Under the pieces are notes generated by a model. The model did not search any database and had not been told where the DNA came from. It saw only the letters and a list, made by a program, of their open reading frames with translations. 32,000 nt of DNA, from contig CBDCNV010000001.1 of NCBI GenBank assembly GCA_965219535.1, forward strand, positions 120,001-152,000. Reading direction: 5' to 3'. Made by a program: the position numbers and the translations under genes. This DNA comes from Opitutales bacterium. GTDB lineage: Bacteria; Verrucomicrobiota; Verrucomicrobiia; Opitutales; PNEW01. Shown in pieces: positions 3,706 to 29,584 of the stretch (the stretch's first letter is position 1; each line of letters begins with the position of its first letter).

Positions 3706-3794
3706 TTTTAACTATTCAGCTACAGGAGCGACGGTTGATCGCATTGCGGACGCGACGGAGCGCGTCTCTCCATATTACATTAATTAAAATATTT

Positions 3795-3861
3795 AGGTGG
3801 AGCGGGCTGCTTGACCGCCATAGCATTAGCGACGGCTGGTTCCCAGCACGCTTCTTCAATT
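3795..3861. repeat. Palindromic intergenic repeat 'C', long form (67 nt)
   Basis: 'aggtggagcgggctg' + ~31-nt insert + 'cagcacgcttcttcaatt'. The same two arms occur at 8266..8301 with only 'tct' between them. The arms are imperfectly complementary (gagcgggctg / cagcacgctt). Confidence 0.75.
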
Positions 3862-3896: not shown

Positions 3897-4766
3897 TTAA
3901 TCCGCTACCCAATGATGAAAGAGAGGTTTCACATCGTCGGGTAGTTTTTCATAAACCTCGTGTTTCACGGGCGGACTATCAAAATTTTTCCCATTTGTCT
4001 CCACAATCATACGCGTATGATCCGGTGTGCCTATCATCGCGGGATTTAGATTAAACCACCAGGGAACATAGCGAATGATTAATGCAATACGTGGTTCATC
4101 GCTGTTATTTACTCCACCCGCGTGCCAGACACGGGGATCAAATAGAAGGACATCTCCTGGTTCGCCACTGATTTGCACTTCAGTTTTATGGGGAGCGTGA
4201 ATATCGATGCCATTAGCACCCTCGACCGAGGGGCCGTTGCCTATACGGTGACTTCCCGGAATAAAATAAGTGCCGCCCGTTACATCATTGAATGGCGTCA
4301 TCATCCAAATCGTTGTCATCCCCATCATAACGTCCGGATAGGGTGCGGTAATATGCATCGCATTGGATTGATTATAAGGCCAAGCATCATGCCAATAAAA
4401 ACGTTGGGTTTCCGGATCTTTTATAAGAACGGAGGTAAATACAATTCGCGCATACGGTCCCAGTAATGCTTCCGCGACACCGAGTACTTTTTCGTGTGAG
4501 AGATAGGGGGCGAAAACCTGGGTGTTATTAATTAAACCCTTGGCCTGATGTTCCCCTTGGATGCTCATTTTATGACCTTGTGCCCGGGTCTTTGCTTTTT
4601 CTTTTTCTATCTCCGCGAATGCTTCTTCACTTACATTTAAAACTTCCTCGCGAATCGCTTTGACCTTCTCCTCGGGGATTACGTCTTTCGCCACACAAAA
4701 GCCGCTCATCTTTATATCGCTGACGATATTATCGCGCGTCTGTTTATTTTCTTTCTCTTTCATCAT
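3897..4766 (-). CDS. Phytanoyl-CoA dioxygenase (PhyH) family Fe(II)/2-oxoglutarate oxygenase
   Basis: Contains 'YFIPGSHR' and 'VLLFDPRVWHAGGVNNSDEPRIALIIRY', the distal His...N.S...R block typical of PhyH-family proteins. 289 aa. Confidence 0.85.
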   Translation of the reverse strand: MMKEKENKQTRDNIVSDIKMSGFCVAKDVIPEEKVKAIREEVLNVSEEAFAEIEKEKAKTRAQGHKMSIQGEHQAKGLINNTQVFAPYLSHEKVLGVAEALLGPYARIVFTSVLIKDPETQRFYWHDAWPYNQSNAMHITAPYPDVMMGMTTIWMMTPFNDVTGGTYFIPGSHRIGNGPSVEGANGIDIHAPHKTEVQISGEPGDVLLFDPRVWHAGGVNNSDEPRIALIIRYVPWWFNLNPAMIGTPDHTRMIVETNGKNFDSPPVKHEVYEKLPDDVKPLFHHWVAD

Positions 4767-4850: not shown

Positions 4851-4987
4851 ATTGTCATCGCGAGGCTGCTTGTCAGCCGTGGCGATCCAGGGGGCTGTCA
4901 ATACGTGACCGGCATCCCCCTGGAATGGAATATGTCGGACTTTGTCCTCGGTAGCCACAGTCGGCTACGCCTCCTTCTCAATGACAA
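4851..4987. repeat. MITE-like palindromic element 'D', degenerate copy (137 nt)
   Basis: Shares 'attgtcat.gcgagg', '..atccag', the core 'tgtcaatacgtgaccggc' and '...caatgacaa' with 8416..8526. The termini are partly decayed. Confidence 0.7.
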
Positions 4988-5324
4988 GAGAGAGAGAGTA
5001 TACGCGATCAGCTTTAACTAAACCAATGTGGAACGACAGCGCCTGATCACTAATTAGCCTTCTTGCATCATGTATCTTGGAACTTGCGTCGTGAATCGAT
5101 ATATTGCGTCAACTGCAGCGCCTTGTTCTGTGACTCCCTTCATCTTAGATATTCGAGCTGATTTGCAATCAATATTTCTTTTGTTGGAAGCTGACAGTAC
5201 GAAAAATAAAAAACACCCCTCATTCAAGTTACGCTAACGGATAGAATTCACTGGCGGTGCCACGCCATCGGCGCGGTACCGTCCGGTGCAAAGATTTGTT
5301 AGGCGGAAAAAGGGAGACCATTTT

Positions 5325-5618
5325 TCAACCTCCAAAAAATCGTATCACGCCGGCTGAAATGAGAATAAGCATAAAAACAAGGAATTCATTAGATATAAAA
5401 TAAGCTATCCGGAAACCCTTCATGTGTGGCGATAAACATTTGGTAAGAAGCATGGGATTTGTAAATATGAAGATAATGAAGCCGACAACGATATAAACCT
5501 TATCAGCATTGACCTTAGCCATTTGAGCGATTCTGGGACCCAAAATAGTTGCAAGGAGAACCGTAAGCAAACCGACCACGGCAATATGAATATCGATTTG
5601 TTCAATAAATTTCTTCAA
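5325..5618 (-). CDS. Small hypothetical membrane protein (97 aa, about 3 hydrophobic segments)
   Basis: An ORF with three hydrophobic stretches (IAVVGLLTVLLATILG, VYIVVGFIIFIFTNPMLL, FLVFMLILISAGVIRFF). It is bracketed by a perfect 13-bp inverted repeat. I recognise no homology. Confidence 0.45.
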   Translation of the reverse strand: MKKFIEQIDIHIAVVGLLTVLLATILGPRIAQMAKVNADKVYIVVGFIIFIFTNPMLLTKCLSPHMKGFRIAYFISNEFLVFMLILISAGVIRFFGG

Positions 5619-5648: not shown

Positions 5649-5940
5649 CTAACATTAGATTAACCAACAAGCTATTGAGTTAGTCTCCGCTATCGAGGGA
5701 GAAAGTCAAAATGCAAATCGCAATGAATCGTTTTGTGTTCCGAGAGATGTGTTGGCTAGCATTATAGATGTATATGAATAATAGCCGGCAATGCAAGCGC
5801 GGGCAAGTGGCTCCCTTCAATCCCGACCCACGATGGCCAGAGGAAGATTACAAGGTTGAGGACTATATTTGATAACCGTTAGGAACAATCCGCAATCGTA
5901 ACGAGGGCAAAGCCCGACATCTCACAAACCGGCAATCGTA
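5649..5940 (+). repeat. Left copy of a ~290-nt duplicated intergenic segment (blocks A 5649..5719 and B 5858..5940)
   Basis: Colinear with 8130..8607. Shared strings are 'ctaacattagatta', 'agtctccgctat', 'gggagaaag', 'gcaagcgcg.gca', 'agagga..attac' and 'ccgttaggaacaatc'...'ccgacatc'...'gcaatcgta'. Confidence 0.75.
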
Positions 5941-6055
5941 CAGAGGGCGAAGCCCACCTGTCGTCCATTGCCTTGTAGCCCAACGCTTCAAATCAGCGGT
6001 GCGCGCAGCTTCTGCTCGATCCGCTGGTTAGCCTCCAGAGTTTTCGACATAATAT

Positions 6056-8110
6056 TCAGTTGATCGTAATCGTCACGCTTCGGCCCGGTCGTTCCAGGTT
6101 ACCGCTGTCGTCGACGGCTCGGCTCAAGATCGTGAAGGTTCCCGCCCGTGGCGGCAGCCACTGATAGTTCCAGGTCTCGCGTCCACTTGCCGGATGCCAA
6201 GTGACATTGTTATCGAGAGATACTTCGACTGCGGCGACTTGTCCGCCGCCTGTGTCCTGAGCGGTGCCACTGATCATCAAGGTGCTACGAGGCAGTGTCG
6301 CGCCTGAGCCGGGAACATGCACGGTCGAAGTTGGAGGTTCCTCGTCGGTGGACGCGATAGCCAGCGCAAGATCTTCTTGTAGCGTCGCTGGTTGCACACC
6401 CATGTCTGCAAACAGATTGATGGTCGCTTGTTGGATGTTCCTATCGGGACCGTTTGGATCGACACCCACCCGGGTCGAGTCGGGATTAGCACGCTCCGGC
6501 GGTACCCCGGTCTCGGTATCGTGGTGGGCATCCAAACCCCAACCCCACTGCACGGTGCCCGCGCCGAAGACCAAGGCACCGCTATTGTGACGATAAAGCG
6601 TCAGATGGTGGGTCGCGGTGCCCGAGTCATAAACCACGCCGTGGTCCTGAATGTAGGGAACGTTGTCGATGGTTGTCTCGGACAGGCGAAACAAACCGGG
6701 TGGGCGAAACCCGTTGTCGAGGTCCTCGTCCCACTCATGACCGAGCAGGCCCTTGAGCAAGACGGCTCTTTCGCCCGGCTCGAGATTGGCAACCTCCGTG
6801 TTGCGCCAGAACCGCAAGGCGGCGTATTCGGCGGGCACGATGAGTGGGTCGTTGCGCCATGCGTTCACCGTGAAAATGGTGCCGGTTAGGGCGTTTTCCG
6901 GCTGCGGGCCCTCCGGATTATAAGGTCGCGAGTCACGCCACGTCCCGGTCCAAACGTCGGCGACGGGGTCAGTCTTGGCGTTATCTCGCGTTTCCTTGTA
7001 GGTGACCAATGTTCGATGAGCGCTGCCGGAGGAGTCAATGCTTGGCTCCCAGCGGGTTTTCCAAAAAACTTCGTTGCCGCTGAAAAAGGCGAGGTGAACG
7101 CCCGCATCACGTGCCGCTTCGACATGTCGCCTTTGCTCAAGAGACCAGTATTCGTCGTGACCGACCGACAGAAACAGGCGGTGCTTGAGGATCTCTTCGC
7201 CGCGCCGATCGCTGTCGAGACCAGTGAAGTAGCTGACGTCGTAGCCATTGGCCTCAAGCCATCGGATGAAAGGATACTCGGCATTGAAAACCATGTTGAC
7301 GGCCCGGTAATGGCGGGTCTCGATCGGGCGGTTGTAGCTCACCTTGTAAGCGCGGGGCGGCCCGCCGTGTGCGCGTGGATTGTCGAGGTTAAGTCGGCCG
7401 TAGGTACAGTGGCCGCCATAGCGGTTGTAGGCCTGCCAGGTGGTATCCGAAGTTTGGAAGAGAATGTCAGAGCCGCCGTTGTCGTCCCGCACAACAAAAT
7501 AGATATGGCTTGCTCGCGGTTCGCGCAGCGCATTGGCAAGACGTCCATGTCCCAACGCTCCGTAGGCGTGTTGCGAGGCAGGTGGCCTCTCCGCCGGGCT
7601 TTCTCGACTATTGTCCGCACGCCAGCCCGCAGGGTCGGAATCCTGTCGTACCAGGCGCGCGAAATAGATTCCCGATGTGGTGTCTGACGGCGCTTGCCAG
7701 GAGGCCGAGACAGCCCAGTTGCCGCAATCGTAGAGGTGAGTGGCCGGGTCCGTCATACATTCCGGCTGAAGTTGGGGGAGAGAGATCGACGGCTTGATGG
7801 TGTCGACACGACGTGCGCCCAGCCCACCATAGAAACCCATTCGATAAATGTCGATCCGATAGTCGGTCGAGTCCGTTTTGATCTTGAAGAAGATCGTCTC
7901 ACCTTGATTGATGCTGATGTCGTGGCCGAAGCCTTGGATCGTCGGATCACCCCAGCCGTTAATATCCCACTCGGTTGCGGGATCGCCCGACAGGCAGTTT
8001 TCCAGGACTATGTTGTTAGCGGGTTGTGGGCCGCGATCTATCGGTTCTTGACTCATTTGTTCCCGTTCTAGTTTATGCCATGACAACGCGTGCCAAATGA
8101 CATTGTTCAT
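6056..8110 (-). CDS. N,N-dimethylformamidase large-subunit-like family protein with a C-terminal Ig-like domain; GC-rich, probably acquired
   Basis: The N-terminal region 'NIVLENCLSGDPATEWDI...IQGFGHDISINQGETIFFKIKTDSTDYRIDIYRMGFYGGLGARRV' matches the pattern I recall for DmfA2-like (DUF6605-type) proteins. A hand-counted line (6061-6120) is 62% GC. Many long alternative-frame ORFs on both strands are typical of high-GC coding DNA. The start could instead be the ATG at 8056 (M19). Confidence 0.7.
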   Translation of the reverse strand: MNNVIWHALSWHKLEREQMSQEPIDRGPQPANNIVLENCLSGDPATEWDINGWGDPTIQGFGHDISINQGETIFFKIKTDSTDYRIDIYRMGFYGGLGARRVDTIKPSISLPQLQPECMTDPATHLYDCGNWAVSASWQAPSDTTSGIYFARLVRQDSDPAGWRADNSRESPAERPPASQHAYGALGHGRLANALREPRASHIYFVVRDDNGGSDILFQTSDTTWQAYNRYGGHCTYGRLNLDNPRAHGGPPRAYKVSYNRPIETRHYRAVNMVFNAEYPFIRWLEANGYDVSYFTGLDSDRRGEEILKHRLFLSVGHDEYWSLEQRRHVEAARDAGVHLAFFSGNEVFWKTRWEPSIDSSGSAHRTLVTYKETRDNAKTDPVADVWTGTWRDSRPYNPEGPQPENALTGTIFTVNAWRNDPLIVPAEYAALRFWRNTEVANLEPGERAVLLKGLLGHEWDEDLDNGFRPPGLFRLSETTIDNVPYIQDHGVVYDSGTATHHLTLYRHNSGALVFGAGTVQWGWGLDAHHDTETGVPPERANPDSTRVGVDPNGPDRNIQQATINLFADMGVQPATLQEDLALAIASTDEEPPTSTVHVPGSGATLPRSTLMISGTAQDTGGGQVAAVEVSLDNNVTWHPASGRETWNYQWLPPRAGTFTILSRAVDDSGNLERPGRSVTITIN

Positions 8111-8265
8111 GCCTCCGAAGTAATGCAGGCTAACATTAGATTAGACAACAGGCTTTCGACCAGTCTCCGCTATTGCTGGGAGAAAGGCAATTGGCAAATC
8201 TAAAAGAGAGTCGAAGGTCCAAAGTCGAAAGCGGAGAGCGCAAGCGCGTGCACGCAATGACTATA

Positions 8266-8301
8266 AGGTGGAGCGGGCTGTCTCAGCACGCTTCTTCAAT
8301 T
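8266..8301. repeat. Palindromic intergenic repeat 'C', short form (36 nt)
   Basis: 'aggtggagcgggctg-tct-cagcacgcttcttcaatt'. The arms are identical to those of 3795..3861. Confidence 0.75.
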
Positions 8302-8415
8302 ACGACTAAATCAAACGCACTGGGGAACAACCTTCGCTGTGTATTGTTAAGCTACGGCGGTCCATCCTTCGCTTTTAGCTTCGGACGACAGGCAGGCAGC
8401 CCGCTTCACCTCCTT

Positions 8416-8526
8416 ATTGTCATTGCGAGGAGCAGCGCGACGCGGCAATCCAGTGGAATGTCAATACGTGACCGGCTTTCCCCTGGATTGCCGCGGTCGA
8501 CTGATAGCCTCCCTCGCAATGACAAT
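8416..8526. repeat. MITE-like palindromic element 'D', intact copy (111 nt)
   Basis: Perfect 15-bp terminal inverted repeat 'attgtcattgcgagg'...'cctcgcaatgacaat'. Second perfect inner pair 'cgcggcaatccag'...'ctggattgccgcg'. The central loop carries 'gtcaatacgtgaccggc', which is shared with 4851..4987. Confidence 0.8.
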
Positions 8527-8607
8527 AGAGGATTACGAAGATGAGAATTATATTCGATATCCGTTAGGAACAATCTACAATCCGACATCCCCCAATCCGC
8601 AATCGTA

Positions 8608-11600
8608 TCATTCAATCGTGATCTCATCGATTGTCACGGTGATATCCTCTCCATCCTCATTTGCGAACGTTGCATTGATGCTCTGTGTCGGTTGAGGGGT
8701 GTTATCGGACTTGAAATTGTTCTGGGTGATCAGGGTCTCGAACCCGGGGGTCGTCGATCCACTCTCCGCTACGACGATCGATGCGACGTTTGACTGTGCC
8801 AGGTCTCCACCTGTTATCCGCAACCCGGGGTTGCCCGCCGGCACGGTGAATGATCCTGTGCCAAACAATAAGTGTGGTACCGCATCGCCGCTGGCATCGA
8901 TGTCGCCTACAGTTAAGCGTACCGCGATCGGCACTCCGCGCGCGTCAACGCCAACCTTGCCTGTGCTCCCGCCGAATACAGTGTTCGATAACTGCATCCC
9001 TCCTATGCCTGAAGAGTTAATCACTTCTACCAATGACACGTCCGCTTGCGCATCATAGACCTGTCCCTCGGGGAAGAGCGCCTGGTTCACCGCGTTGATC
9101 GATCCGACGGTGAAGATACTGAAAAAGGTATTCGAATTAGCTCCATCGATGACCACACTTGGTTTACCGGTGACGTACTCCACTGCCTGATTGTAGCGCG
9201 GAGGTATAGCCGGAGGCAGGAAAGTGGCTGGGTCCAAGGTTATGGTAAAAGTCCCTGTGCCTGAAAACTCTACCTGTACTATGTCCTCGGTTTCATCCAT
9301 GAAGGAGACTCGTGTGATCTGTTCTTCCTTTGCCTGAAACTGAATGAATTCACCGGTGAGCAGGACCTGATCAAACACGTTCCCGTTAGGGTGCGCAATG
9401 TTTTCTCCCGCCACATCACCCGAGCCATCGAGAATTAATTTGGCGACCGATGATAATATAACATTATGCCGTCCACCAGCAGTTATGGATGTAACGTTTA
9501 CAACCCCCGCGGGTGCTTCGGCCTGCCCGGAATCATTGAGCCCCCACCCGATCACTTCCCCCGCAGCATCGAGCGCCAGATTGTGGTTTAATCCAGCCGC
9601 GATGGAGGTTACCGCACTCGCATTGAAGGCCACCGTTATTTCGTTTTTCGCGCTCAGGCTTGCCTGGGGCTGGGCTGCGTTAAATGGAATATCCAATTGC
9701 CCAAATGTATTATCACCCCAGGCTACCGTAACACTATCCTCGGTCAGCGCCAGGCTGTGGTTATCTCCTGCTGAGATTGCTGTCACATTCGACAGATCGG
9801 CAGGTACATCCGTCTGGCCGGAGTCATTCAGACCCCAAGCGACGACAGAGCCATCATTTTTTAAGGCCAGGTTATGAAACCCACCGGCCGCCAATGCAAA
9901 GACATCGGTCAGGTCTCCAGGGGGTGTTGCCTGGCCATGGTCATTATTACCCCAGCCGATAACAGTACCATTCGACAATAGAGCGAGGCTATGACTTCTT
10001 CCGGCAGACACTTCGATCACATCGCTTAATCCTGCAGGTACATCCGTCTGGCCGTTATCATTGTTACCCCAGGCGACTACGGTGCCATCCGCTATCACGG
10101 CTAAATTATGATCATACCCCGCATCCACATCGGTAACATTTACCACTTCATCGGGTATAGTCGATTGTCCCGCTTGGTCCCTGCCCCATCCGACTACGCT
10201 GCCGTCATTTCTCAAACCGATATTATGGTCCAGCCCGGCCGACACCTCGATCAGTTCGGGCGCGCCCTCTCCGCGAATAGCTCCCGGCACGCCACCTTGA
10301 TCAAAATCATCAGCACCATAGCCGGCTGCCGTTACCCTCGTTTCAATTTCCTCCTCCACAGGGGGATCACCATTTCCTGTTTGCCCGCCAGGTTCCTTAA
10401 AGTAGAAGCTGTTGTAAGTGAGATTTTGAAGGTCATGGTATTGCAGATCCAGGTTTGTTACGTCAGCCCAGGGAATGCTCTCACTGCTAAGGTCAAGATT
10501 TGTGATATTGCTGAGTTGATCGTTTAGTACTCGCGAAAAAGTAGGACCGCTTTGCCGCGTTATCCGGAATTGGAATCCGTTAACGGGAAAGGTAGGGGAA
10601 ATTTCATCACCGGTTGAAGGATCTCTATAGGTCCAGGAAACACTCTGGATATTATTGTTACTGTCGAGCATCACGGTAGGAAGGATAACCAAGTGATAAT
10701 CTTCAGCCATGGAAGTATCAAAATCAGTTGTAACATCCATGCCTTTATAACTTACGCTATAAGTGCCACTTGGTGGGTAAGGAGGAATACTTACACTGGG
10801 TATACCATAAAAGTTAACATCTTCACCCGGACTAAAAAAAACAGCTGGACTATTGTTGTATTGGGAGCCGTTGGGTCCGCTGAAGAACACCTGGTTCGGA
10901 TCGGGAAGTTCGGTGTCCACCACGCTAAAGTTAAGAAAATAATTTAAATTGGCAGGAAAACCTAGATCCACACCTACTAAACTTCCAGTGCGTGCTGTGA
11001 AATCACCACCGGATTGAAAAATCATACTGATAGAGGTATCGGGTGCGCTCTCACCAGTAGTACGAAATACAAGATCGGTCGTTGCGTTGAATCCCGCAAG
11101 ACCGGTAACGATTTCGACCGGGTTGCCAACGGTGTAATCTGTATCATTGATGTCGACGATATTGATAAAATTCAAAACCACTATGTAATCCGTTCCCGGT
11201 TGCAAGGTGCCCGCAGGAATGGTGACCGAGGTCGCTGTATAATCTAAACTTCCGGATTCAGGTGGAAGCGGAGTCTCAAAAACTATATCTCCATCCATAT
11301 AAGTTTCGATTTCCATGAGGATAAAATCCCCTGCATTTCCATTGGCAAAGGCATCCCAAGTAAGAGTAAAATCCTGGCTGGGATCTACTGCTTGCGTCTC
11401 CGCCAAATTAGTAATTCGAGGATCGTTCGGAAACCTTACGCCGTTAACCGGATCGGCATTTAAATTTAAAGTAGCGGATATGCTGCCATCGTTAGTGGCA
11501 ATTATATTCATGATGTATGCGCCATCGGGGTAATTAGAATCGAGATCAATGATCGAATCAAAGATTTGCACAGATTCCCACTCACCTTCAGATTCTTGGA

Positions 11601-11826
11601 CCAATGACTGAGGACTGCCGCCCGGAGGCGTTACCGTAGCGCTGATAATGGAATCAGGGGTAGTTCCAAATACTGAAACTTCGAAACTGTATTTATCAGC
11701 GGCTCGTGCATCTTTGAATATTACGTACAATTCTGCATCCGCAGCTTTAAGATTCGCTTCAAATAAAAACAGTATGGTAATTATAAGAGCAAAGATATGA
11801 GAGAGCGGTATGCGTTTAATTTTCAT
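8608..11826 (-). CDS. Large secreted protein (1072 aa): signal peptide, N-terminal beta-rich region, six RCC1-like repeats, then the conserved 275-aa C-terminal module
   Basis: Signal peptide 'MKIKRIPLSHIFALIITILFLFEANLKA'. Repeated '[GA]WG.N..GQ...P' units (GWGRDQAGQSTIP, AWGNNDNGQTDVP, GWGNNDHGQATPP, AWGLNDSGQTDVP, AWGDNTFGQLDIP, GWGLNDSGQAEAP). The C-terminus is shared with 18390..20507. Confidence 0.85.
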   Translation of the reverse strand: MKIKRIPLSHIFALIITILFLFEANLKAADAELYVIFKDARAADKYSFEVSVFGTTPDSIISATVTPPGGSPQSLVQESEGEWESVQIFDSIIDLDSNYPDGAYIMNIIATNDGSISATLNLNADPVNGVRFPNDPRITNLAETQAVDPSQDFTLTWDAFANGNAGDFILMEIETYMDGDIVFETPLPPESGSLDYTATSVTIPAGTLQPGTDYIVVLNFINIVDINDTDYTVGNPVEIVTGLAGFNATTDLVFRTTGESAPDTSISMIFQSGGDFTARTGSLVGVDLGFPANLNYFLNFSVVDTELPDPNQVFFSGPNGSQYNNSPAVFFSPGEDVNFYGIPSVSIPPYPPSGTYSVSYKGMDVTTDFDTSMAEDYHLVILPTVMLDSNNNIQSVSWTYRDPSTGDEISPTFPVNGFQFRITRQSGPTFSRVLNDQLSNITNLDLSSESIPWADVTNLDLQYHDLQNLTYNSFYFKEPGGQTGNGDPPVEEEIETRVTAAGYGADDFDQGGVPGAIRGEGAPELIEVSAGLDHNIGLRNDGSVVGWGRDQAGQSTIPDEVVNVTDVDAGYDHNLAVIADGTVVAWGNNDNGQTDVPAGLSDVIEVSAGRSHSLALLSNGTVIGWGNNDHGQATPPGDLTDVFALAAGGFHNLALKNDGSVVAWGLNDSGQTDVPADLSNVTAISAGDNHSLALTEDSVTVAWGDNTFGQLDIPFNAAQPQASLSAKNEITVAFNASAVTSIAAGLNHNLALDAAGEVIGWGLNDSGQAEAPAGVVNVTSITAGGRHNVILSSVAKLILDGSGDVAGENIAHPNGNVFDQVLLTGEFIQFQAKEEQITRVSFMDETEDIVQVEFSGTGTFTITLDPATFLPPAIPPRYNQAVEYVTGKPSVVIDGANSNTFFSIFTVGSINAVNQALFPEGQVYDAQADVSLVEVINSSGIGGMQLSNTVFGGSTGKVGVDARGVPIAVRLTVGDIDASGDAVPHLLFGTGSFTVPAGNPGLRITGGDLAQSNVASIVVAESGSTTPGFETLITQNNFKSDNTPQPTQSINATFANEDGEDITVTIDEITIE
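8611..9438 (-). other. Conserved C-terminal module, copy 1 (aa 798-1072, ends ...ATFANEDGEDITVTIDEITIE)
   Basis: My ungapped hand alignment with aa 431-705 of the 18390..20507 product gives 164/275 identical residues. Confidence 0.8.
9439..10296 (-). other. RCC1-repeat (beta-propeller) region of the 1072-aa protein (aa ~511-796)
   Basis: Six units of ~50 aa, each with 'AG..H..AL..DG.V..WG.N..GQ'. Confidence 0.8.
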
Positions 11827-12030: not shown

Positions 12031-13620
12031 TCAGCTTACGCGCCTGAAACGCATAAAGAGGAAGAGACAACCCAATCCCATCAGCGCCCAGGTAGAGGGT
12101 TCGGGAACTACCTCCAGACTAAGGGAATTAGCGGCATAATGGGGATGAAAAAACAGGTTTCCGGAAAATCCGAATTCGTCGTCAATAGAACCAAATTCGC
12201 CAGACTTCAACCCCGTCCACGTGAGTACCTCAAAGCTCTGACCTAGTGTGGGGAATGTTTTCCCAAGCAATAGGATGTCCAGGTCGCCACTGCCAAAAGT
12301 CAGGTCTCCCATTATATTCAATTGGCCAAAGTCAATTCCGTCCACGATACTGATTTCTAACTTACTCCCCGCTTTAAATGTCAGGTCCCCTTCAATGTCT
12401 AAAGGGAAAACAGGATCGGGTGCGATCGTTCCAAAGTTTTCAATACTATCGATATCAAGAATCCCGTTTCCTTGAACCAGACCCAGATTAGTCAGGGTGA
12501 ACGCTTCTAATTCACTGATCAGTGATCCACTACCTGAAAGATTTAAAGTACCATTTAATCCTACCGTTACATCGTTAGTAACGATCACTTGACTACCCCC
12601 ATCGATACTCAATTGCCCCGTCCCCAGATTGGCTATAGCTAAATTGGATGCATTGATTGTCCCGCCCCCATTAACCGTTAAATTTGCATTATCCGAAGCT
12701 CCCAAGCTAAGTTGAATAGCGTTGTTTACGTCCAGTGTATTGCCAGCCATTCCAAAGGTTAGAGAATCGTTGGGAATATTTAGCCCGTCGACAGTCTGAC
12801 TAGTAACGAAGGAAACGAGATAATTGCTACCGGTCTGATTAAAATGGGCAATATCACCTGAACCGGGGGCGACACCGTCGACCCATTTAGTTCCATCGCC
12901 AAAATTTCCAGGGGCTGGACTAGCCCACAAAAAGGGAATATCGGTCAGCGCGGTTGAAATTTCGCTCGCTAGAAGCGGTCCATCCCAAATCCGGATTTCG
13001 TTAACGATACCCGCAGAAGCTTCTCCAAAACCCGTTGCAGAATCGTCCATAAAAAATGCAAATTGCGCGAATCCACTGTTGTCGAAGGCTATGGCTTGGC
13101 TGGTTGAATCAACAAAGGAGTACTCCGGTGTGGAGGAACCGTTCAGGTAAGCGGTATAAATATTATCAAGTGAGGAGCGAGTGAACACCACATTTATAAA
13201 TTCATCAGCTTGAATAATGCCCGATCCACCATTAGTGGGTGCGAAAAAACGTATATTATTGCTCCTTATATATTGACCTGAATCTGGGATGCGGTTTTTG
13301 AAATCAACAATTTTTTCCCAATCGCTTACTTCCTCAAAACTAAACTGAATCCCAATCGAATAATTATCTGCCAGGCTTAATGCGGTATCAAGAAACACGC
13401 CTTGGTTTGCGCCAAATGAGTAGCTGTTACTATTTATCGTCCCCCCATTATCGGTTAATACCGTACTGCTTAAACTGTCACTAAGATTGTTATCAAATTC
13501 AAATAAATGAACCAAGGTAACAGCTTGCACTCCACTCCATGCCAATGTGCTTATTAATAGTCCGCATCCAATTTTTTTTAGCTTATTTAAAGACATGGCG
13601 AAACAGTGAAATACATTCAT
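12031..13620 (-). CDS. PEP-CTERM-anchored secreted protein with an N-terminal LamG/concanavalin-like region and an autotransporter-like beta-helical repeat region
   Basis: C-terminus 'VVPEPSTWALMGLGCLFLFMRFRRVS' has the PEP motif, a TM helix and a basic tail. N-terminal signal 'KKIGCGLLISTLAWSGVQA'. 'NEIRIWDGPLLASEI' is typical of the end of a LamG-type domain. Repetitive 'GGGTINASNLAIANLGTGQLSIDGGSQVIV...LNLSGSGSL'. The start may instead be M9. Confidence 0.85.
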   Translation of the reverse strand: MNVFHCFAMSLNKLKKIGCGLLISTLAWSGVQAVTLVHLFEFDNNLSDSLSSTVLTDNGGTINSNSYSFGANQGVFLDTALSLADNYSIGIQFSFEEVSDWEKIVDFKNRIPDSGQYIRSNNIRFFAPTNGGSGIIQADEFINVVFTRSSLDNIYTAYLNGSSTPEYSFVDSTSQAIAFDNSGFAQFAFFMDDSATGFGEASAGIVNEIRIWDGPLLASEISTALTDIPFLWASPAPGNFGDGTKWVDGVAPGSGDIAHFNQTGSNYLVSFVTSQTVDGLNIPNDSLTFGMAGNTLDVNNAIQLSLGASDNANLTVNGGGTINASNLAIANLGTGQLSIDGGSQVIVTNDVTVGLNGTLNLSGSGSLISELEAFTLTNLGLVQGNGILDIDSIENFGTIAPDPVFPLDIEGDLTFKAGSKLEISIVDGIDFGQLNIMGDLTFGSGDLDILLLGKTFPTLGQSFEVLTWTGLKSGEFGSIDDEFGFSGNLFFHPHYAANSLSLEVVPEPSTWALMGLGCLFLFMRFRRVS

Positions 13621-13821
13621 TGAGAATCTGATTTCAAAACAGGTTAAAAATTATACTAGTAGCAAATAAACAAGATTAGGTAGTAGAAATATGATAACCT
13701 AAGACAGCCTAAGCTGTCAATGTTCATATGATTCAGGCTATGCCATTTTCGATAATAAGCGAGAGGCCAGGTTTCAGGAGAACCTTATATATTCTACTTG
13801 AGCCTGAGTAAGCGACCGGGA

Positions 13822-15054
13822 CTAAGGCTTATTCTCTTGTTGCTGGCTCAGCCAAAGCTCAGCCCCGCGTACGGATTCAGCAACTTGCGCTTCAGACATA
13901 TTCTCCTGCAGCAAGTTTAAGATTTCTTTAAATTCTGTCATACCTCCCGCGATAGCGAGGCTTATCCATTTGTAAGCTTCAATAAAATCGCGCTCCACCC
14001 CCTGGCCGTCAGCATACATCACTCCAAGGTTGTGTTGGGCTCCGGCGACTCCCCGTTCCGCTGCTTCGCGAAACCACTTGACGGCCTCTCCATAATCCTG
14101 AGTTACTCCCTCACCATCGCGATACATTACCCCAAGATTGTATTGGGCCTCTGTCATACCTTGTGCGGCCGCTTTGCGATACCAAGTTAAGGCTTCGGTA
14201 TAATCCTGAGTGACTTCCTCGCCCGTGTAATACATCGTCCCAAGGTTGTATTGGCTATCGGCGTGGCCCTGTTCGGCCGCTTTGCGATACCATGTCACCG
14301 CCTCGCTGTAATCCTGGGTTACCCCTTGAACATTATGATACATCCACCCAAGGTTGGATTGAGCTCCTGCGTCTCCCTGTTCGGCCGCTTTGCGATACCA
14401 CTTGAAAGCCTCATCATAAGACTGAGTAACCCCCAAGCCCTCTCTGTAGATCTCCCCGAGAGCAGTTTGGCCTTTGGCATTTCCCTGGTCCGCCGCTTTG
14501 CGAATCCAGGTTAAGGCTTCATCATAATCCTGGGTTATCCCCTGGCCCGCTGCGTAGATTACGCCGAGGGCAGTTTGGGCTTTGGCATCTCCCTGGTCTG
14601 CAGCCTTGCGATACCATGTGGTGGCTTCGGTGTAATCCTGCTCGACCCCTTGTCCTTTTTCATACATCGCTCCCAGTCTGTTTTGAGCTCGCATCGATCC
14701 CTGTTCTGCTGCCTTGCGTGTCCATGTGACAGCCGCGTTGTAATCCTGCTCTGCCCCTAGACCCTTTTCATACATCACCCCAAGGACGTATTGGGCTTTG
14801 ATGTAACCTTGTTCTGCGGCTTGGCGAATCCATTTTAAAGCTTCGCCAAAATCCTGAGTTACCCCCTCGCCAGCGTAATACCTCCCCCCGAGGTAATATT
14901 GCGCTTTAGCTTCACCCGTTTCTGCGCGCGTTATGATATCTGCTAATCGTTCATTCTCTACACCGACTACAGCAGAGGGCAGAATTAAGAACGCAATTAT
15001 TGAGCGCCAATATTTCACCCCTGTAAATAATTTAGCTATTTTTTCAGGCATCAT
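13822..15054 (-). CDS. Sel1-like repeat (SLR/TPR-like) protein with an N-terminal signal/anchor and nine 36-aa repeats
   Basis: Nine tandem units of the form 'AQ..LG.MY..G.GV.QDY.EA..WYRKAAEQG'. Hydrophobic N-terminus 'YWRSIIAFLILPSAVVG'. Confidence 0.9.
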   Translation of the reverse strand: MMPEKIAKLFTGVKYWRSIIAFLILPSAVVGVENERLADIITRAETGEAKAQYYLGGRYYAGEGVTQDFGEALKWIRQAAEQGYIKAQYVLGVMYEKGLGAEQDYNAAVTWTRKAAEQGSMRAQNRLGAMYEKGQGVEQDYTEATTWYRKAADQGDAKAQTALGVIYAAGQGITQDYDEALTWIRKAADQGNAKGQTALGEIYREGLGVTQSYDEAFKWYRKAAEQGDAGAQSNLGWMYHNVQGVTQDYSEAVTWYRKAAEQGHADSQYNLGTMYYTGEEVTQDYTEALTWYRKAAAQGMTEAQYNLGVMYRDGEGVTQDYGEAVKWFREAAERGVAGAQHNLGVMYADGQGVERDFIEAYKWISLAIAGGMTEFKEILNLLQENMSEAQVAESVRGAELWLSQQQENKP

Positions 15055-15268: not shown

Positions 15269-17257
15269 ATGACCAGCAACATTGATGGTAAGCTCGTATA
15301 CAAATCGGATAGTGAACTGCTCATTATCGAGCCATGGGGGCATGATGGATTAAGGGTCCGTGTAACCCCTAACTCTGAGGTCGCCGACAACGCCTGGGCG
15401 TTGACCGAACCGGTTACCCAACCAGCGGATTCGACGATTACGATCAATGATGACGAAGCGGTTATCCGAAACGGAAAGATCTCCGCATCGATAAGCGATA
15501 TATATACGCAACCTGGCTATCTCCAGTTTTTCCGCCACACGGGAGAGGGTCAGAAAACCTGCATCCTGAGTGAGCACGACTATGTCGTCCACGCGCACAA
15601 CCCGGGCACACGCACTTTCCAGGCTCGTGATGACGGGCTTTTTCATGCCGAAACAGATTTTACGGCGAGGGATGGGGAACGGCTTTACGGCATGGGGTTG
15701 AATGCGACGGGACGAGTGAATCTGAAAGGCAGCGTTATCGATCTTTACCAACGCCACGTGAAACACGTTGTGCCTTTTCTCGTTTCAAGTGAAGGCTACG
15801 GATTTCTCTGGAACAACCCCTCGCTCGGGCGCGCTGAATTTGGAAATAACAGAACCCGCTGGGTCGCTCGCGGCTGCAAGCAGATCGATTACTACATAAC
15901 GACCGGTGATTCTAACGCCGAGATCATGGAGCACTATGCCGACGCAACGGGTCACGCTCCGGTATTACCCTACTGGGCATCGGGATTCTGGCAGTGCAAG
16001 AACCGCTACAAAACCCAGGAGGAGTTTCTGGGGATTGCGCGGGAATTTAAGCGACTCAACCTTCCCCTCTCTGTTCTTGTCATCGACTTTTGCCACTGGA
16101 AAACGACGGGCGATTGGAGACTCGATCCGGAATTATGGCCGGATCCGGAAGCAATGGTTCGAGAGCTCGATGAGATGGGTGTTCGAATAATGATATCACC
16201 CTGGATCGTCGTAGACAAAACGAGTGAAAATTTCGAGCCGATGAAAAAGCAGGGACTGTTCACCGGCTCCATCGACGGGGAAAAGGACACCGTCAGGTTC
16301 GGCGGTATACCAGGTGAAGATCCTGAGAAGTACACCTACGATCCGACAAATCCGGCAGCGGCGGCTTATCTCTGGAGCAAGTGGAAAGAAAACTATTTCG
16401 ATATCGGAATCAAAACATTCTGGCTTGATCCCTCTGATGATTTTCACGCCATAGAAGACTACGATCAAGTGCTCTATCATATAGGACCAGCAGTTGAATC
16501 ACACTGCTACTTTCCCATTGCCCATCAGAAAAACATCTGCGAGGGATTGCATGCAGCTGGGGAACCTGAAGTCGTCACGATCTGCCGCAGTTCCTGGGCG
16601 GGTTCGCAACGCTATGGCGCCTCGCCGGCGGCACATGATATCATGGCATCTTTCGAACATCTTCACGAGTACATGTTGGCGGGGCTTAATTTATCGATGA
16701 GCGGTATTCCCTGGGGAGCGGCGGAAATCGGAGGATTTGTCAGCCTCGACAATACGAGCGACAAATTCCATGAACTGATGGTCCGCTGGTATCAGTACGG
16801 CGTTTTCACACCCATCTTTCGTACGCATAGTGTGCGTCCTAACAACGAAGCCTGGACTGTAGGAGGCGACACTTATCGGCACATCCGGGCGGCAATATTT
16901 CTCAGAGAACGACTGCGCCCCTACGTGATGGAACAAATGAAGTTGGCATCGGAGCGGGGAATCCCACCGATGCGTCCACTGTTCTTTGACTTTGAAAAGG
17001 ATTCCGTGGCTGTAGAGATTGAAGACCAGTTTCTCTTTGGTCCCGATCTCCTCGTGGCGCCCGTTACCCAGTATGAGCTACGCAGCCGTGAAGTGTATCT
17101 CCCGACCGGGTCCGAGTGGACCGATGCCTGGACAGGTGAGACGCAAAAAGGTGGTCAGAAAATCGAAGCGGACGCACCAATTGAAAAAATCCCCGTGTTC
17201 GTGCGCGGTAACAATGCCGAATTGGTCCGCTTATTTGACAATCTGTACGCAGAGTAA
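15269..17257 (+). CDS. Glycoside hydrolase family 31 (alpha-xylosidase/alpha-glucosidase type)
   Basis: 662 aa. 'GIKTFWLDPSDDF' is a W.D nucleophile-region analogue, and 'RWYQYGVFTPIFRTHS' and 'PLFFDF...QFLFGPDLLVAPV' are characteristic GH31 blocks. Confidence 0.8.
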   Translation: MTSNIDGKLVYKSDSELLIIEPWGHDGLRVRVTPNSEVADNAWALTEPVTQPADSTITINDDEAVIRNGKISASISDIYTQPGYLQFFRHTGEGQKTCILSEHDYVVHAHNPGTRTFQARDDGLFHAETDFTARDGERLYGMGLNATGRVNLKGSVIDLYQRHVKHVVPFLVSSEGYGFLWNNPSLGRAEFGNNRTRWVARGCKQIDYYITTGDSNAEIMEHYADATGHAPVLPYWASGFWQCKNRYKTQEEFLGIAREFKRLNLPLSVLVIDFCHWKTTGDWRLDPELWPDPEAMVRELDEMGVRIMISPWIVVDKTSENFEPMKKQGLFTGSIDGEKDTVRFGGIPGEDPEKYTYDPTNPAAAAYLWSKWKENYFDIGIKTFWLDPSDDFHAIEDYDQVLYHIGPAVESHCYFPIAHQKNICEGLHAAGEPEVVTICRSSWAGSQRYGASPAAHDIMASFEHLHEYMLAGLNLSMSGIPWGAAEIGGFVSLDNTSDKFHELMVRWYQYGVFTPIFRTHSVRPNNEAWTVGGDTYRHIRAAIFLRERLRPYVMEQMKLASERGIPPMRPLFFDFEKDSVAVEIEDQFLFGPDLLVAPVTQYELRSREVYLPTGSEWTDAWTGETQKGGQKIEADAPIEKIPVFVRGNNAELVRLFDNLYAE

Positions 17258-17519
17258 CGTGGTAGTCAAATGCGGTATCCGGCTAAACTGATATGATGTC
17301 ACTATAGATCGGGTATGTTGCCTCCCTCGTGTAAATAACTGGAGTCGGATATATAGATTATTCTTTAGCTGGTTTTCAGAAAAGTTGAATGCACCCGAAA
17401 TTCACTCATAAATTATTATTATAGTGTTATAGCTTTTAAATATGCTACCTTCGCCCCAGATCTGCGATTATCACAGTGTGGCATCGTTATTATGAATTGC
17501 ACCCCCTGTCCTACAAACA

Positions 17520-17756: not shown

Positions 17757-18232
17757 CTGAAATAAAACCTATCTGATAACACAGTTGGACATCAGCATTA
17801 CTCTCTCAATATTTGTTTTTAAATCTGATAATTGGTCATTCAATGTTCCGCATAAAGTGCTAAAGAGCAAGTGAACCGTGATATTTTAAAGTCAATGTCT
17901 CACTGTTGAGATTAATTTATCTTATGTTCTTAACCATTAGTAAGAGCGAATGTCACAAGGAATATAATAGATGATAACAGAGTTCAAGTTTGCATTGCTA
18001 AACTCTCATGGAATAAACGTAACCTCCGCTAAAACCGACAGGGCAATACCATAGGGGAACAATGACGATCCTCCCCCACCTATCCCAATTTGGAAGAGCA
18101 GATGACTTTTAAACCGCGGATTGGTCGCAAATGCGATATGACGTTAACTTCAATCGGTTAGTGATAGAAGAAAGTTCCTTTGACCACGTTATATCCCGAA
18201 TGAGGTCGTAAACTGTGCTTAAGGAAAATCAC

Positions 18233-18298
18233 TTACTCGATCGTCACTTCTTCAGTCAGCACTGTTACCTCTGCATCATCCTCGTTGATGAAGATTGC
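18233..18298 (-). pseudogene. Orphan 3'-terminal relic (21 codons plus stop) of a third gene carrying the conserved C-terminal module
   Basis: The reverse-strand translation 'AIFINEDDAEVTVLTEEVTIE*' aligns with 'ATFANEDGEDITVTIDEITIE*' (11/21 identical, and the same terminal 'TIE-stop'). The frame is closed three codons further upstream by a stop at 18305..18307. Confidence 0.7.
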
Positions 18299-18325
18299 GG
18301 GCGCTTACGCGCGTGTTATGTTTTA

Positions 18326-18379
18326 AGTTTTAGGTGTTAAGCAATTTTATCTAAAACCTAACACTTAACACCTAAAACT
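18326..18379 (-). terminator. Perfect 16-bp-stem hairpin directly downstream of the 18390..20507 gene (candidate terminator)
   Basis: 'agttttaggtgttaag' (18326..18341) and 'cttaacacctaaaact' (18364..18379) are exact reverse complements separated by a 22-nt loop. The hairpin begins 10 nt after the stop codon. The U-tract on the minus strand is weak (ttaaaac). Confidence 0.45.
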
Positions 18380-18389
18380 GATCGTTAGA

Positions 18390-20507
18390 TCATTCAATCG
18401 TGATCTCATCAGTCGCCACGTTGACGTCATCACCGTCTTCGTTGGCAAAAGTGGCAATTATGCTTTGTGTTGGCTGAAGTTCCCCATCCGACTTAACATT
18501 GTTCTGAGAAGTTAACATTTCAAATCCAGGGTTTGAAGACTCACCCTGGGCAATAACAATAGAGGCACCATTACTCTGCAGAAGATCACCTCCAGTAATT
18601 CTTAAGCCGGGGATTGGCGCATCCACCGTGAAAGAATTATCTCCAAACAATAGATGTGGTACCGCATCACCACGGGCATTGATATCTCCAATCAATACGC
18701 GAACAGAAATTGAAACTCCCGGTGCTTTTAAACCCACGTCACCTGAGGATGCACTAAAGTGTGTATTCGCGCAGAGAATTCCCCCAAATTCTGATGAATT
18801 AGTAATTTCTAATAGCGCTATGTCCGCTATCGCGTCGTAAGTCTCACCACCGGGGAACAAAGCTTGATTTATTGCATTAGCTCTACCCACGGTAAATATA
18901 CTCAAGAAAGTACTAGCGTCAGCCTCCTCTACTTTAATTCTGGCACTCCCCTTTACATAATTGATATCCTGATTGTATTTCTTTGGCCGGTTGGGAAGCT
19001 CATAAGAACTCGGATCTATAATGATCGTTAGCTTCCCCGCTCCAAAAAATTCTACTTGTACAATATCATCGTCTTCGTCGATAAAAGACACCCTGGATAT
19101 TTGCTCTGGGTCTGCTATTAATTCAACGCTTGGTCCAGTTAATAATACCTGGTCAATCACATTGCCATTGGGATGCTCTATATTTGACCCGACTTGTGAT
19201 CCGTTTCCCTGCAATAGAACATTTTCGTCGGAGTCTGGATCATCGGAATCGACAACTCCATCGCCATCTGTGTCTTTCACACGGATATCGCTTATTTCGC
19301 TTTCATTCTCGTCTCTATTATCATTGTCATCTATGTTGTCTTCTTTATCGAGTATTTCATCGCTGTCTGAAACCACAAATGCAAACTCCCCGTCCAGCCC
19401 AATTAAAGCTGCATATTCGTTATCACCAATGATGAGATTGAAGCGTATAGGATTGGCCGTCTCAGACAGATCGATTCCCCAAGCCTCGACAATAAATTTG
19501 AACGACTCATCATCTCGCTCTAATAATTCAAAAAATATCCCGGCACCATTTAATTCTCCTTCAAAAGCGAAATATCCAGGTTCCACCTCCGTAAATGCAC
19601 CCGCGGGAATCTCAATAACCGAGGTCCCGAATGCAACCCTCACTCCATCATTAATCGGATCAATTCCGTCATTTGTCGCGCCTTGGAGAATTTTACCACT
19701 GACCGCGTATCCATCAACAATAGATGGGAAAGATTCATATCTAATCTCCAGGTCATTGATTGTAAATATCGATACTGGAAAATTATCATCCTCATTCTCG
19801 TGAACTTCGTCGTCAAATTCATCAAAGTCATGGCCATCTTCTTCAAATTCATTTTCCTCTTCGTGAAAGTACTCCTCGTCCTCCCACGCGAAGTCGCCCT
19901 CTTCATCAATGTCGTTGTCTCCTGTAAAGCCATCATCGTTGTCGCTTAACTCAAAATGCAGCTCATCATCTATACGAATCATTGCTTCTCCCTCATCATT
20001 GCCTATCCTGATCGCAATTGTTATAGGATTGAGCGTACCTGTCAGATCAACTCCCTCGGCTCTTACTTCAGCTACATAGATTTCATCATCTCGTTCTATT
20101 AGTTCAAAAATAATTCCACCACCATTTATTTCTTCCTCAACCACATAATATCCAGGTTCCACCTCTGTAAACGAGCCCGGTGGAAGTTCTATAACAAAGG
20201 CACCGACTGATAATCTCAGATCTTCATTAACCGGGTCAATTCCTTCACTTGTTATATTAACTGAAAATTCGCCCCTGAACTCAAAGGCATCATTAACGAC
20301 AGGGAATGATTCAAAAATAATTACAGCTCTTGTAATTGTGAATTCTTGAAAAAGATCCCCTTTTACAAGCAAGGGAGTTACTAAACACGATAATGTTAAT
20401 AACAATTGGCGAACAAACAGCGATTCAGCAAATGACTGCCAAAGAACGAAGTTAGTAAGATACCGGCGTGAATTAATTTCAGATTTTTGATTATTTAAAG
20501 CTTTCAT
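18390..20507 (-). CDS. Secreted, highly acidic protein (705 aa): internally duplicated ~135-aa domain x2, D/E-rich linkers, a Ca-binding-like 'DTDGDGVVDSDDPDSDE' segment, then the conserved 275-aa C-terminal module
   Basis: Hydrophobic signal-like segment 'LLLTLSCLVTPLLV'. Repeat 1 (aa 56-189) and repeat 2 (aa 246-383) share 'ESFP...GIDP.N...R...G..VIE.P.G.FTEVEPGY......NG.GI.FEL.ERDDE'. The C-terminus is shared with 8608..11826. Confidence 0.8.
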   Translation of the reverse strand: MKALNNQKSEINSRRYLTNFVLWQSFAESLFVRQLLLTLSCLVTPLLVKGDLFQEFTITRAVIIFESFPVVNDAFEFRGEFSVNITSEGIDPVNEDLRLSVGAFVIELPPGSFTEVEPGYYVVEEEINGGGIIFELIERDDEIYVAEVRAEGVDLTGTLNPITIAIRIGNDEGEAMIRIDDELHFELSDNDDGFTGDNDIDEEGDFAWEDEEYFHEEENEFEEDGHDFDEFDDEVHENEDDNFPVSIFTINDLEIRYESFPSIVDGYAVSGKILQGATNDGIDPINDGVRVAFGTSVIEIPAGAFTEVEPGYFAFEGELNGAGIFFELLERDDESFKFIVEAWGIDLSETANPIRFNLIIGDNEYAALIGLDGEFAFVVSDSDEILDKEDNIDDNDNRDENESEISDIRVKDTDGDGVVDSDDPDSDENVLLQGNGSQVGSNIEHPNGNVIDQVLLTGPSVELIADPEQISRVSFIDEDDDIVQVEFFGAGKLTIIIDPSSYELPNRPKKYNQDINYVKGSARIKVEEADASTFLSIFTVGRANAINQALFPGGETYDAIADIALLEITNSSEFGGILCANTHFSASSGDVGLKAPGVSISVRVLIGDINARGDAVPHLLFGDNSFTVDAPIPGLRITGGDLLQSNGASIVIAQGESSNPGFEMLTSQNNVKSDGELQPTQSIIATFANEDGDDVNVATDEITIE
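18393..19220 (-). other. Conserved C-terminal module, copy 2 (aa 431-705, ends ...ATFANEDGDDVNVATDEITIE)
   Basis: See copy 1. In addition, a 22-nt run spanning the stop codon is identical in both genes ('atcattcaatcgtgatctcatc' at 8607..8628 and 18389..18410). Confidence 0.8.
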
Positions 20508-20564
20508 TTTTTATATATCTCCAGGTAGAAGTATGTTAATTAGCTCTACTATTCTAATCCTTGG

Positions 20565-20591
20565 CTCTTATAATTTTAAAAATTATAAGAG
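20565..20591. promoter_or_regulatory. Perfect 27-bp palindrome (13+1+13) in the upstream region of the 18390..20507 gene; candidate operator
   Basis: 'ctcttataatttt a aaaattataagag'. It lies 58-84 nt upstream of the ATG at 20507 and contains tataat-like hexamers on both strands. Confidence 0.4.
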
Positions 20592-21033
20592 TACGACACA
20601 GTCGTGATTATTGATAAACCCAAGTTAGCAAAACATAGCAGTAAACGAAAAACCAATAATAACGTCTCACTTTTAAAAGACAAAACTAATGGTAATATCA
20701 GCTATAGATTTATATTTTTTTAACAGGGTAGTATAATTATAATTTTGATAATTCAAAAAGCAGCTAACCCGATTAATATATTTTGAATCACCGTATAAAT
20801 TTAACGACTCCACTCTAACGAACTATTTAAGGAATAATAATTAGAACGTTATTTTTATTCTTTATCTAGCATTTCAGAATTTTTAAAATGCTCCAGATAT
20901 TCACGGGTAGAATTTATAATTCATAATTTCAAATCAGGGTTTGAGTATGTTAACGACGCGTATAAAATAGACTTTAACGTTTGGGATGATCCCTACGGTA
21001 AATCTGGAATTATGAGCTTCGGATAACTCCACG

Positions 21034-29507: not shown

Positions 29508-29584
<77 letters not shown>

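Follow-up and report, generated by a model that had tools for sequence, protein, structure and literature searches.

The window analysed here is a 32,000-nt stretch of Opitutales bacterium contig CBDCNV010000001.1 (assembly GCA_965219535.1, positions 120,001 to 152,000). It contains a GC-rich gene with a DMFA2_C domain that lies between two related intergenic spacers, which share two repeat blocks, A and B; the right-hand spacer also holds two further elements, C and D. Composition and homology show the gene to be foreign, taken up from another bacterial lineage, and the interval around it, bounded by an RCC1-repeat gene and a PhyH-family dioxygenase gene, is a hypervariable slot. The explanation favoured here, tentatively and with a little less than even confidence, is that a single horizontally acquired gene sits in a repeat-rich slot whose flanks are old, diverged copies from wider repeat families. 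The repeats would then be the setting for the acquisition, or homology arms for it, and not the scar of an integration.

The genes of the region all lie on the minus strand and are transcribed in the order RCC1, DMFA2_C, ORF97 (a small open reading frame, or ORF) and PhyH. The spacers between them measure 497-551 nt (RCC1 to DMFA2_C), 437 nt (DMFA2_C to ORF97) and 558 nt (ORF97 to PhyH). An independent contig in the European Nucleotide Archive (ENA), L001, is 99.99% identical to the window over 18.1 kb with both repeats included, so the repeat arrangement is not an assembly artefact. With 4 kb from this contig and 9.75 kb from a second one (L017), the DNA read for this genome came to ~46 kb.

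The DMFA2_C gene

The ORF at 6056-8110 on the minus strand matches Pfam DMFA2_C over 372 of 374 model positions (E 3.7e-103) and also contains a Big_7 domain. Its homologues are 666-685 aa long, and because ENA calls the closest ones at 666 aa, the real start is probably the ATG at 8056, giving a protein of 666 aa. The first-pass annotation had named the gene DMFase-like, a putative assignment that has the Pfam domain as its only basis; a phmmer search of PDB sequences returned only sulfite-oxidase Ig-like domains, matching residues 569-655.

Composition sets the gene apart from most of its surroundings. Its GC content is 59.3%, compared with 48.4% for the window, and the GC content at third codon positions (GC3) is 0.67, while 16 of the 19 window genes compared fall between 0.36 and 0.61. 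The high GC content reported earlier is thus real and foreign-like, but it is not unique, as 2 of the 18 other compared genes are at least as GC-rich: a beta-lactamase gene at 28249-29247 (GC3 0.69) and a second PhyH gene at 29912-30757 (GC3 0.82).

Relatives of the protein number in the thousands; the top 120 are 76-88% identical to it, and their named sources include metagenome-assembled genomes (MAGs) of Poribacteria, Caldilineaceae, Gammaproteobacteria and Immundisolibacterales. Six of the corresponding loci were fetched (L002, L003, L012-L015). Their proteins are 83-88% identical to that of the window, their local GC content is 53-65%, and their neighbourhoods are all different. At the DNA level the gene is 81-86% identical to them, with L003 reaching 86% without gaps, and in each case the homology stops within 0-44 nt of the ORF ends. 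Blocks A and B occur in none of the six, and no repeats flank the gene in four independent loci of other genomes. Identity to the nearest locus, L003, is 0.68 at fourfold degenerate sites, so the actual donor is unsampled. A PhyH gene lies 2.5 kb downstream of the DMFA2_C gene in L002 and ~8 kb upstream in L003.

The gene is also missing from the syntenic site in three relatives of the window, described below. Horizontal acquisition, as the annotation had proposed, is therefore upheld by composition, by this absence from all three and by close homologues in unrelated genomes. The varied neighbourhoods and the homology confined to the ORF point to repeated transfer of a single gene.

A hypervariable slot between RCC1 and PhyH

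Searches with the N-terminal part and the C-terminal domain of RCC1 led to three syntenic contigs. Two of them, L010 and L016, come from close relatives, with flanking-gene DNA 87-98% identical and a fourfold-site identity of 0.87 in GH31; the third, L011, stands further off, with DNA identities of 78-92%. The PhyH gene on the downstream side is 89-95% identical in DNA in all three. ORF97, like the DMFA2_C gene, is missing from each of them.

The DNA held between these borders differs from genome to genome. The slot of L016 reads RCC1, a C element, a gene designated X2, a short B-like stub, D, B and PhyH. L010 has the same arrangement with the addition of a copy of the insertion sequence (IS) IS481, a gene of 163 aa and direct duplications of its own, which flank the 163-aa gene and X2 and measure 551 nt (91% identity) and 231 nt (87%). 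L011 has PEP-CTERM and Sel1-like genes instead. X2 is a paralogous gene of 754 aa that combines Ig_7 with the C-terminal domain found in RCC1, and its place in the closest relatives is occupied in the window by the DMFA2_C gene and ORF97. A tblastn search found no remnant of X2 in the window slot. The annotation had proposed looking in close relatives for an empty site with one A-B segment and no gene; none of the three has one.

The duplicated DNA of L010 contains two IS481-family copies, the first complete and the other degraded (12770-14150 and 17960-18420). They lie at the same relative position past the RCC1 and X2 stop codons, inside duplicated flanks that are 87-91% identical, and the first duplicate takes in the first 9 codons of PhyH.

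The C-terminal domain shared by RCC1 and X2 spans 276 aa (8608-9438 in the RCC1 gene), ends in DEITIE and has no Pfam match. It recurs in the window at 18390-19220 and in L005, L010, L016 and L018, joined to N-terminal parts that differ from protein to protein (among them RCC1 repeats and Ig_7), and the genes that carry it are often arranged in tandem; 210 relatives were found among 5.8 billion proteins. The RCC1 copy shares 59% identity with the one in the 705-aa protein encoded at 18390-20507 and 85% with the one in a gene of L005, the Opitutales MAG OY829953.1.

Elsewhere the orthologous intergenic DNA of the window and L010 aligns at 84-91%. A UxuA-like/xylose-isomerase-like gene at 1662-2931 (GC3 0.61) is missing from L010, where its two neighbours abut, and the junction between window and L010 is clean, with no flanking repeats. 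Repeats therefore do not come with every indel in this region, and taken together with the absence of repeats at the other DMFA2_C acquisitions, this means that no general duplication-generating mechanism is evident.

The repeats that flank the gene

The ordered strings listed for the two spacers in the first-pass annotation were all found, and the alignments of A and B establish the two segments as true paralogues, colinear and in direct orientation. The two copies of block A (A-left and A-right, Table 1) are 79% identical, with a gapless BLAST match of 5649-5719 to 8130-8200 (79% over 72 nt). Block B matches without gaps at 5843-5897 and 8528-8582 (82% over 55 nt) and, extended through one 17-nt indel to 5940 and 8607, is 84% identical over 82 aligned nt. 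The E-values of these matches run from ~8e-10 to 2e-8. The 14-mer and 15-mer cores occur exactly twice in the 32 kb (0.2-0.8 expected, with 2-3 mismatches allowed).

The middles of the spacers are unalignable except for a 13-mer, gcaagcgcgNgca, at 5793-5805 in the left copy. Its score was equalled in 8 of 1000 shuffles against 8208-8252 and in 45 of 1000 against 8208-8527. A-right ends in TAATCTAATGTTAG, 20 nt ahead of the ATG at 8110 and 74 nt ahead of the probable start at 8056. B-left carries a short internal hairpin insert, GGGCTTTGCCC, which it has in common with the copy in L018 and which is missing from B-right.

The additional DNA of the right copy (8253-8527) consists, as had been stated, of elements C and D, both of which are inverted-repeat elements. 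Element C has inverted ends of ~19-31 nt, AGGTGGAGCGGGCTG, and varies in size from ~65 to 175 nt. Other copies lie in the window at 3797-3861, in L010 at 15465-15497 and in L016 at 10728-10797 (90% identity over 10735-10796), and the window copy at 8253-8427 is orthologous to the one past the RCC1 stop in L016. Element D has a 16-nt perfect outer arm and an 18-nt inner arm (TTGTCATTGCGAGG ... CCTCGCAATGACAA) and spans ~110-150 nt. It recurs in the window at 4851-4992, in L001 at 20520-20684, in L005 at 1602-1679, in L010 at 14222-14374 and 18496-18627, and in L016 at 13159-13412. Element D is dispersed between genes both in the window lineage and in a less closely related Opitutales genome.

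Several searches for a conserved function in the spacers gave null results. Rfam returned no spacer match at gathering thresholds or at a permissive E-value, and RNAalifold gave weak energies and no useful covariation for three A copies and five B copies. A scan for sigma-70 sites and terminators found no sigma-70-like site inside A. No convincing terminal inverted repeats were seen in A or B, and no clear target duplications lie beside them.

Repeats A and B at other loci

Profile hidden Markov models of A and B were built and run over all fetched DNA, which yielded a few copies in ~150 kb. A full-length A occurs in L011 at 2774-2869, within another variable segment, and ends 18 nt ahead of the start of a glyoxalase gene. 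The A core GGCTAATCTAATGTTATGCGG is found in L010 at 14755-14780, 75 nt ahead of the 163-aa gene. The genes preceded by A are therefore DMFA2_C, ORF97 and the glyoxalase gene, with the core alone ahead of the 163-aa gene. A has the same orientation to the downstream gene in all cases, its similarity ends at ...TAATGTTA(G/A/T), and it ends 18-75 nt ahead of the start codons of these unrelated accessory genes.

Repeat B occupies the opposite end of genes. B-right starts exactly at the RCC1 stop codon. The copy in L005 starts 2 nt past the stop of a C-terminal-domain gene, and that in L018/L019 starts 6 nt past that of an unrelated gene for a 230-aa membrane protein, so that at RCC1, L005 and L018 B lies 0-6 nt past a stop codon. 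Further copies in L010 (two) and L016 stand beside element D just upstream of PhyH in the opposite orientation, and the flanks of X2 in these two genomes hold only a 21-nt B-like stub. A simple inversion was considered as the cause of the opposite D-B orientation and rejected, since C keeps its syntenic orientation. The 34-nt core of B in L005 is 97% identical to B-left, although identity at the fourfold sites of the gene beside it is just 0.44; the B core is either under constraint or mobile. A and B can be described from these positions as two separable families of short repeats, A preceding start codons and B following stop codons.

Identities between copies are nearly flat. The local pair of A copies is 0.79 identical, and the two are 0.77 and 0.76 identical to the copy in L011. 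For B, the local pair is 0.84-0.85 identical, B-left and L005 0.89, B-right and L018 0.83, and B-left and L018 0.77. Such flat values mean that the local copies are not demonstrably sister copies, these sequences being short and of limited resolution.

Beyond the fetched loci, the A core, searched as an exact pattern in JGI metagenomes, gave three matches of 21-29 nt, all compatible with chance. One lies inside a coding ORF, and another, in L009, precedes a gene by ~30 nt and continues for 6 nt past the pattern. The B core, searched in the same way in species-representative genomes, gave one real match, in OY829953.1, and one that is probably due to chance, in Syntrophales. The annotation had held that A-B-type segments found elsewhere beside ordinary genes would speak against its integration model. 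Such segments do exist in a qualitative sense, but A and B are rare locally.

These positions raise the question of whether A (5') and B (3') bound exchangeable A-gene-B units that are moved by a recombinase or by recombination between modules, in loose analogy to integron cassettes or to composite units flanked by MITEs (miniature inverted-repeat transposable elements). The cargo between the spacers, from A-right through the gene to B-left, would be one such unit; A stands ahead of four unrelated lineage-specific genes in a constant orientation with a constant end, which is close in sequence to the integron core GTTRRRY (A-left reads GTTAGGC and L011 GTTAAGC), and several genes have a B past their stop codons. 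However, no integrase or transposase was found in the ~46 kb, and the spacers, which measure 290-480 nt, greatly exceed attC sites in length and lack a conserved hairpin. A and B mostly stand alone instead of bracketing one gene as a pair, neither block shows clear terminal inverted repeats or target duplications, and the homologues of the DMFA2_C gene elsewhere do without them. A cassette of this kind is quite improbable.

Origin of the two flanking copies

In the favoured explanation the flanks are two old, diverged paralogous copies of a composite spacer made up of a post-stop B and a pre-start A. Recombination in or near the repeated flank modules and the MITE-like elements C and D would move genes into and out of the slot, and the DMFA2_C gene would have entered the slot, or replaced X2, at such modules.

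The first-pass annotation had instead traced the duplication to a single-crossover integration of a circle carrying a copy of the host segment, a claim that is unsupported given the absence of an empty site, local copies that are not sisters, and the presence of A and B elsewhere. In a broader form, the ~290-nt RCC1-ORF97 spacer would have been duplicated by the event that acquired the gene, through either a Campbell single crossover with a circle bearing a homologous or homeologous spacer copy or a tandem duplication that captured foreign DNA. The geometry suits this well, since the cargo (5941-8129) begins right where one copy ends and stops right where the other starts, and the spacers are colinear in A, the 13-mer and B and hold the sole A and B copies in ~46 kb. 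The age of the repeats is also compatible, as their identity of ~80% is similar to the neutral identity between window and L010 near the locus (0.75-0.81 at fourfold sites), and the repeats are no more diverged than the two genomes are there. A second repeat-cargo-repeat structure with a GC-rich gene, at 29733-31053, is described below. Several comparisons speak for the favoured explanation over such a duplication. Set against copies at unrelated loci or in other genomes, the local ones show no closer relationship to each other. The spacer middles are unalignable even though orthologous intergenic DNA of the window and L010 is readily aligned. B-right starts exactly at the RCC1 stop, like B at the stops in L005 and L018, which is what a post-stop module predicts and a random duplication endpoint does not. 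Finally, none of the three syntenic relatives has an empty site. Moreover, four other loci that acquired the gene show no duplication, and there is no known source of a circle carrying this host spacer. Duplication by the acquiring event is accordingly judged unlikely, although it keeps a real share of the probability.

The tandem arrangement of C-terminal-domain genes suggests another origin, in which a tandem duplication produced RCC1, spacer, X2 and spacer, and the foreign gene then exactly replaced the X2 coding sequence. Tandem genes of the family stand at this position in L010, L016 and L005, those of L010 share downstream DNA that is 87-91% identical, and B follows family-gene stops in both the window and L005. 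The X2 flanks of L016 and L010 nevertheless lack A and hold nothing of B but the stub, tblastn found no trace of X2 in the window, the gene that B follows in L018 is an unrelated one, and the replacement would have to be precise at both gene ends. Such a relic is improbable. The possibility that A-right represents the native upstream region of X2 was dropped, as the similarity is not significant (equalled in 70 of 500 shuffles for L016 and 358 of 500 for L010).

Several observations weigh against the favoured explanation itself. A is absent upstream of X2 in the orthologous L016 and L010 spacers, so the relatives do not give the pre-acquisition state of this lineage. The ~46 kb of this genome contain no A or B beyond the two pairs described here, which makes the families sparse, and adjacency of both pairs to one foreign gene by pure chance is unlikely; by a rough estimate, two such spacers placed at random among ~25 would be neighbours in ~8% of cases. 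The colinear 13-mer in otherwise unalignable middles favours duplication of the whole spacer. In addition, neither block yielded a promoter consensus or a conserved RNA structure, and we infer their function from position alone.

A second repeat-cargo-repeat structure

The structure at the tRNA-Lys gene has the same geometry. Over 100 nt, segment 29733-29832 matches segment 30954-31053 at 81% identity, and the two correspond to the upstream region and first 25 codons of a PhyH gene at 30977-31750. The cargo between them is the PhyH-like gene at 29912-30757, which has 62% GC (GC3 0.82) and adjoins tRNA-Lys. The left copy at 29733 opens a truncated ORF of 44 codons.

The tRNA-Lys(CTT) region occupies 29508-29728 and is followed by three direct repeats of 22-38 nt (29589-29728). 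Downstream of the 705-aa gene, at 18075-18112, lies a 38-nt fragment that is 84% identical to the 5' half of tRNA-Lys. At the syntenic place in L010 (3093-3251), 172 nt match the tRNA-Lys region. These repeats and fragments may be relics of integration at the tRNA.

A more far-reaching idea is that these Opitutales, which are probably associated with sponges, have a gene-exchange system not recognised before. Accessory genes would carry a portable A ahead of the start and a B past the stop, both serving as homology arms or as sites of recombination. Single foreign ORFs would then be slotted in without a nearby integrase or transposase, sometimes with duplication of the spacer, and the structure at 29733-31053 would be another product of the same system. 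This is a long shot.

Layout of the locus

The features of the locus are collected in Table 1. A GAGG motif stands 5 nt ahead of the ORF97 TTG start, and the ORF ends at a terminator-like hairpin that overlaps the stop codon. A Pfam scan of the 18 largest window ORFs detected no integrase or transposase domains, and the precomputed Pfam annotations of the window genes and ~14 kb of flanking DNA contain neither enzyme.

Table 1. Coordinates of the RCC1-PhyH interval, listed in the direction of transcription (window positions)
Feature	Position	Strand	Basis or remark
RCC1-repeat gene, 1072 aa	8608..11826	-	Pfam RCC1_2/WD40_RLD; upstream neighbour of the slot
B-right, post-stop repeat B, rich in GATTG units	8528..8607	-	its first base is the one following the RCC1 stop
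Element D, palindromic hairpin, of the two spacers only in the right one	8415..8527	.	arms and other copies
Element C, MITE-like	8253..8427	.	inverted ends and other copies
A-right, pre-start repeat A	8130..8207	-	comparison with A-left
Foreign DNA: DMFA2_C/Big_7 coding sequence 6056-8056 with 18 nt downstream and 44 nt upstream	6038..8100	-	homology, GC3
97-nt stretch between the end of foreign homology and B-left	5941..6037	-	no likeness to relatives or to the RCC1 3' end
B-left	5843..5940	-	115 nt past the DMFA2_C stop
Middle of the left spacer	5727..5842	-	one sigma-70-like match, 5806 to 5778
A-left	5649..5726	-	ends 30 nt ahead of the ORF97 TTG start
ORF97, 37% GC, hydrophobic	5325..5618	-	not called by ENA
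PhyH-family dioxygenase gene	3897..4766	-	Pfam; conserved downstream border of the variable slot

The RCC1 gene differs by a 1-nt indel between the window (8608-11826) and L001 (6284-9503), and ENA calls it as two genes of 657 and 392 aa. Split calls also occur in L016 and L006, and homopolymer errors or real frameshifts may be the cause. Two further intergenic features were seen outside the slot. The segment at 20508-21033 has 29% GC and contains a 27-nt palindrome (20565-20591), and a hairpin repeat, GGACGCRACGGAGYGCGTCYCTCC, recurs in the window at 3740-3772, in L005 at 1868-1893 and in L011 at 17243-17281.

Comparison with known systems

The locus is a further instance of an already known kind, an acquired gene in a variable slot. 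It resembles flexible genomic islets in that an atypical gene in one lineage is replaced by other genes between the same conserved flanks in close relatives, with IS- or MITE-like elements nearby (IS481 in L010). It differs from them in that the slot has no tRNA, integrase or transposase, and in that the unit is a single ORF at whose ends the homology stops. Flanking direct repeats are widespread among bacteria and are reported for 10-18% of variable segments (Touzain et al. 2010, PMC2884548).

The direct repeat, foreign insert (5941-8129) and direct repeat recall the products of Campbell-type integration. Here, however, the repeats are only ~80% identical, their middles are unalignable, they are not clear sisters, and no single-copy empty site was seen in the syntenic relatives. 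The repeat-cargo-repeat geometry of one genome can mislead, and in this case it is accompanied by wider repeat families and a hypervariable slot.

Sites of the attC type form a conserved R''/L''-L'/R' hairpin and measure 57-141 nt. Integron cassettes in attC arrays share with the locus co-oriented genes, related spacers and, in the end of A, a sequence near GTTRRRY, but the ~46 kb contain no integrase and no attC-like hairpin, the genes are 2-3 kb long, and only two of the spacers are related.

REP-type (repetitive extragenic palindromic) elements often sit just past stop codons, as B does. Elements B, C and D resemble these and the related bacterial interspersed mosaic elements (BIMEs), the enterobacterial repetitive intergenic consensus (ERIC), Correia elements and MITEs in being short, non-coding and intergenic, and C and D have inverted ends as well. 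In contrast, A and B have no clear terminal inverted repeats, are rare in the sampled DNA and match no Rfam family.

Block A finds its closest parallel in the putative mobile promoters and promoter reuse described by Nijveen, Matus-Garcia and van Passel (2012, PMC3575422). Like them, the copies of A, ~80 nt long and 76-79% identical, stand near the starts of non-homologous genes with their orientation kept. They differ in that A has no sigma-70 consensus and is a candidate by sequence alone, and in that the published sets consist of highly similar sequences, whereas the copies of A are more diverged.

The DMFA2_C ORF recurs at 77-88% protein identity in several phyla, apparently within sponge-type microbial communities, and its homology is always cut at the ORF ends. 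How such bare genes integrate is the question that the locus raises. If A and B are recurrent sites of landing or exchange, they would provide a concrete handle on it.

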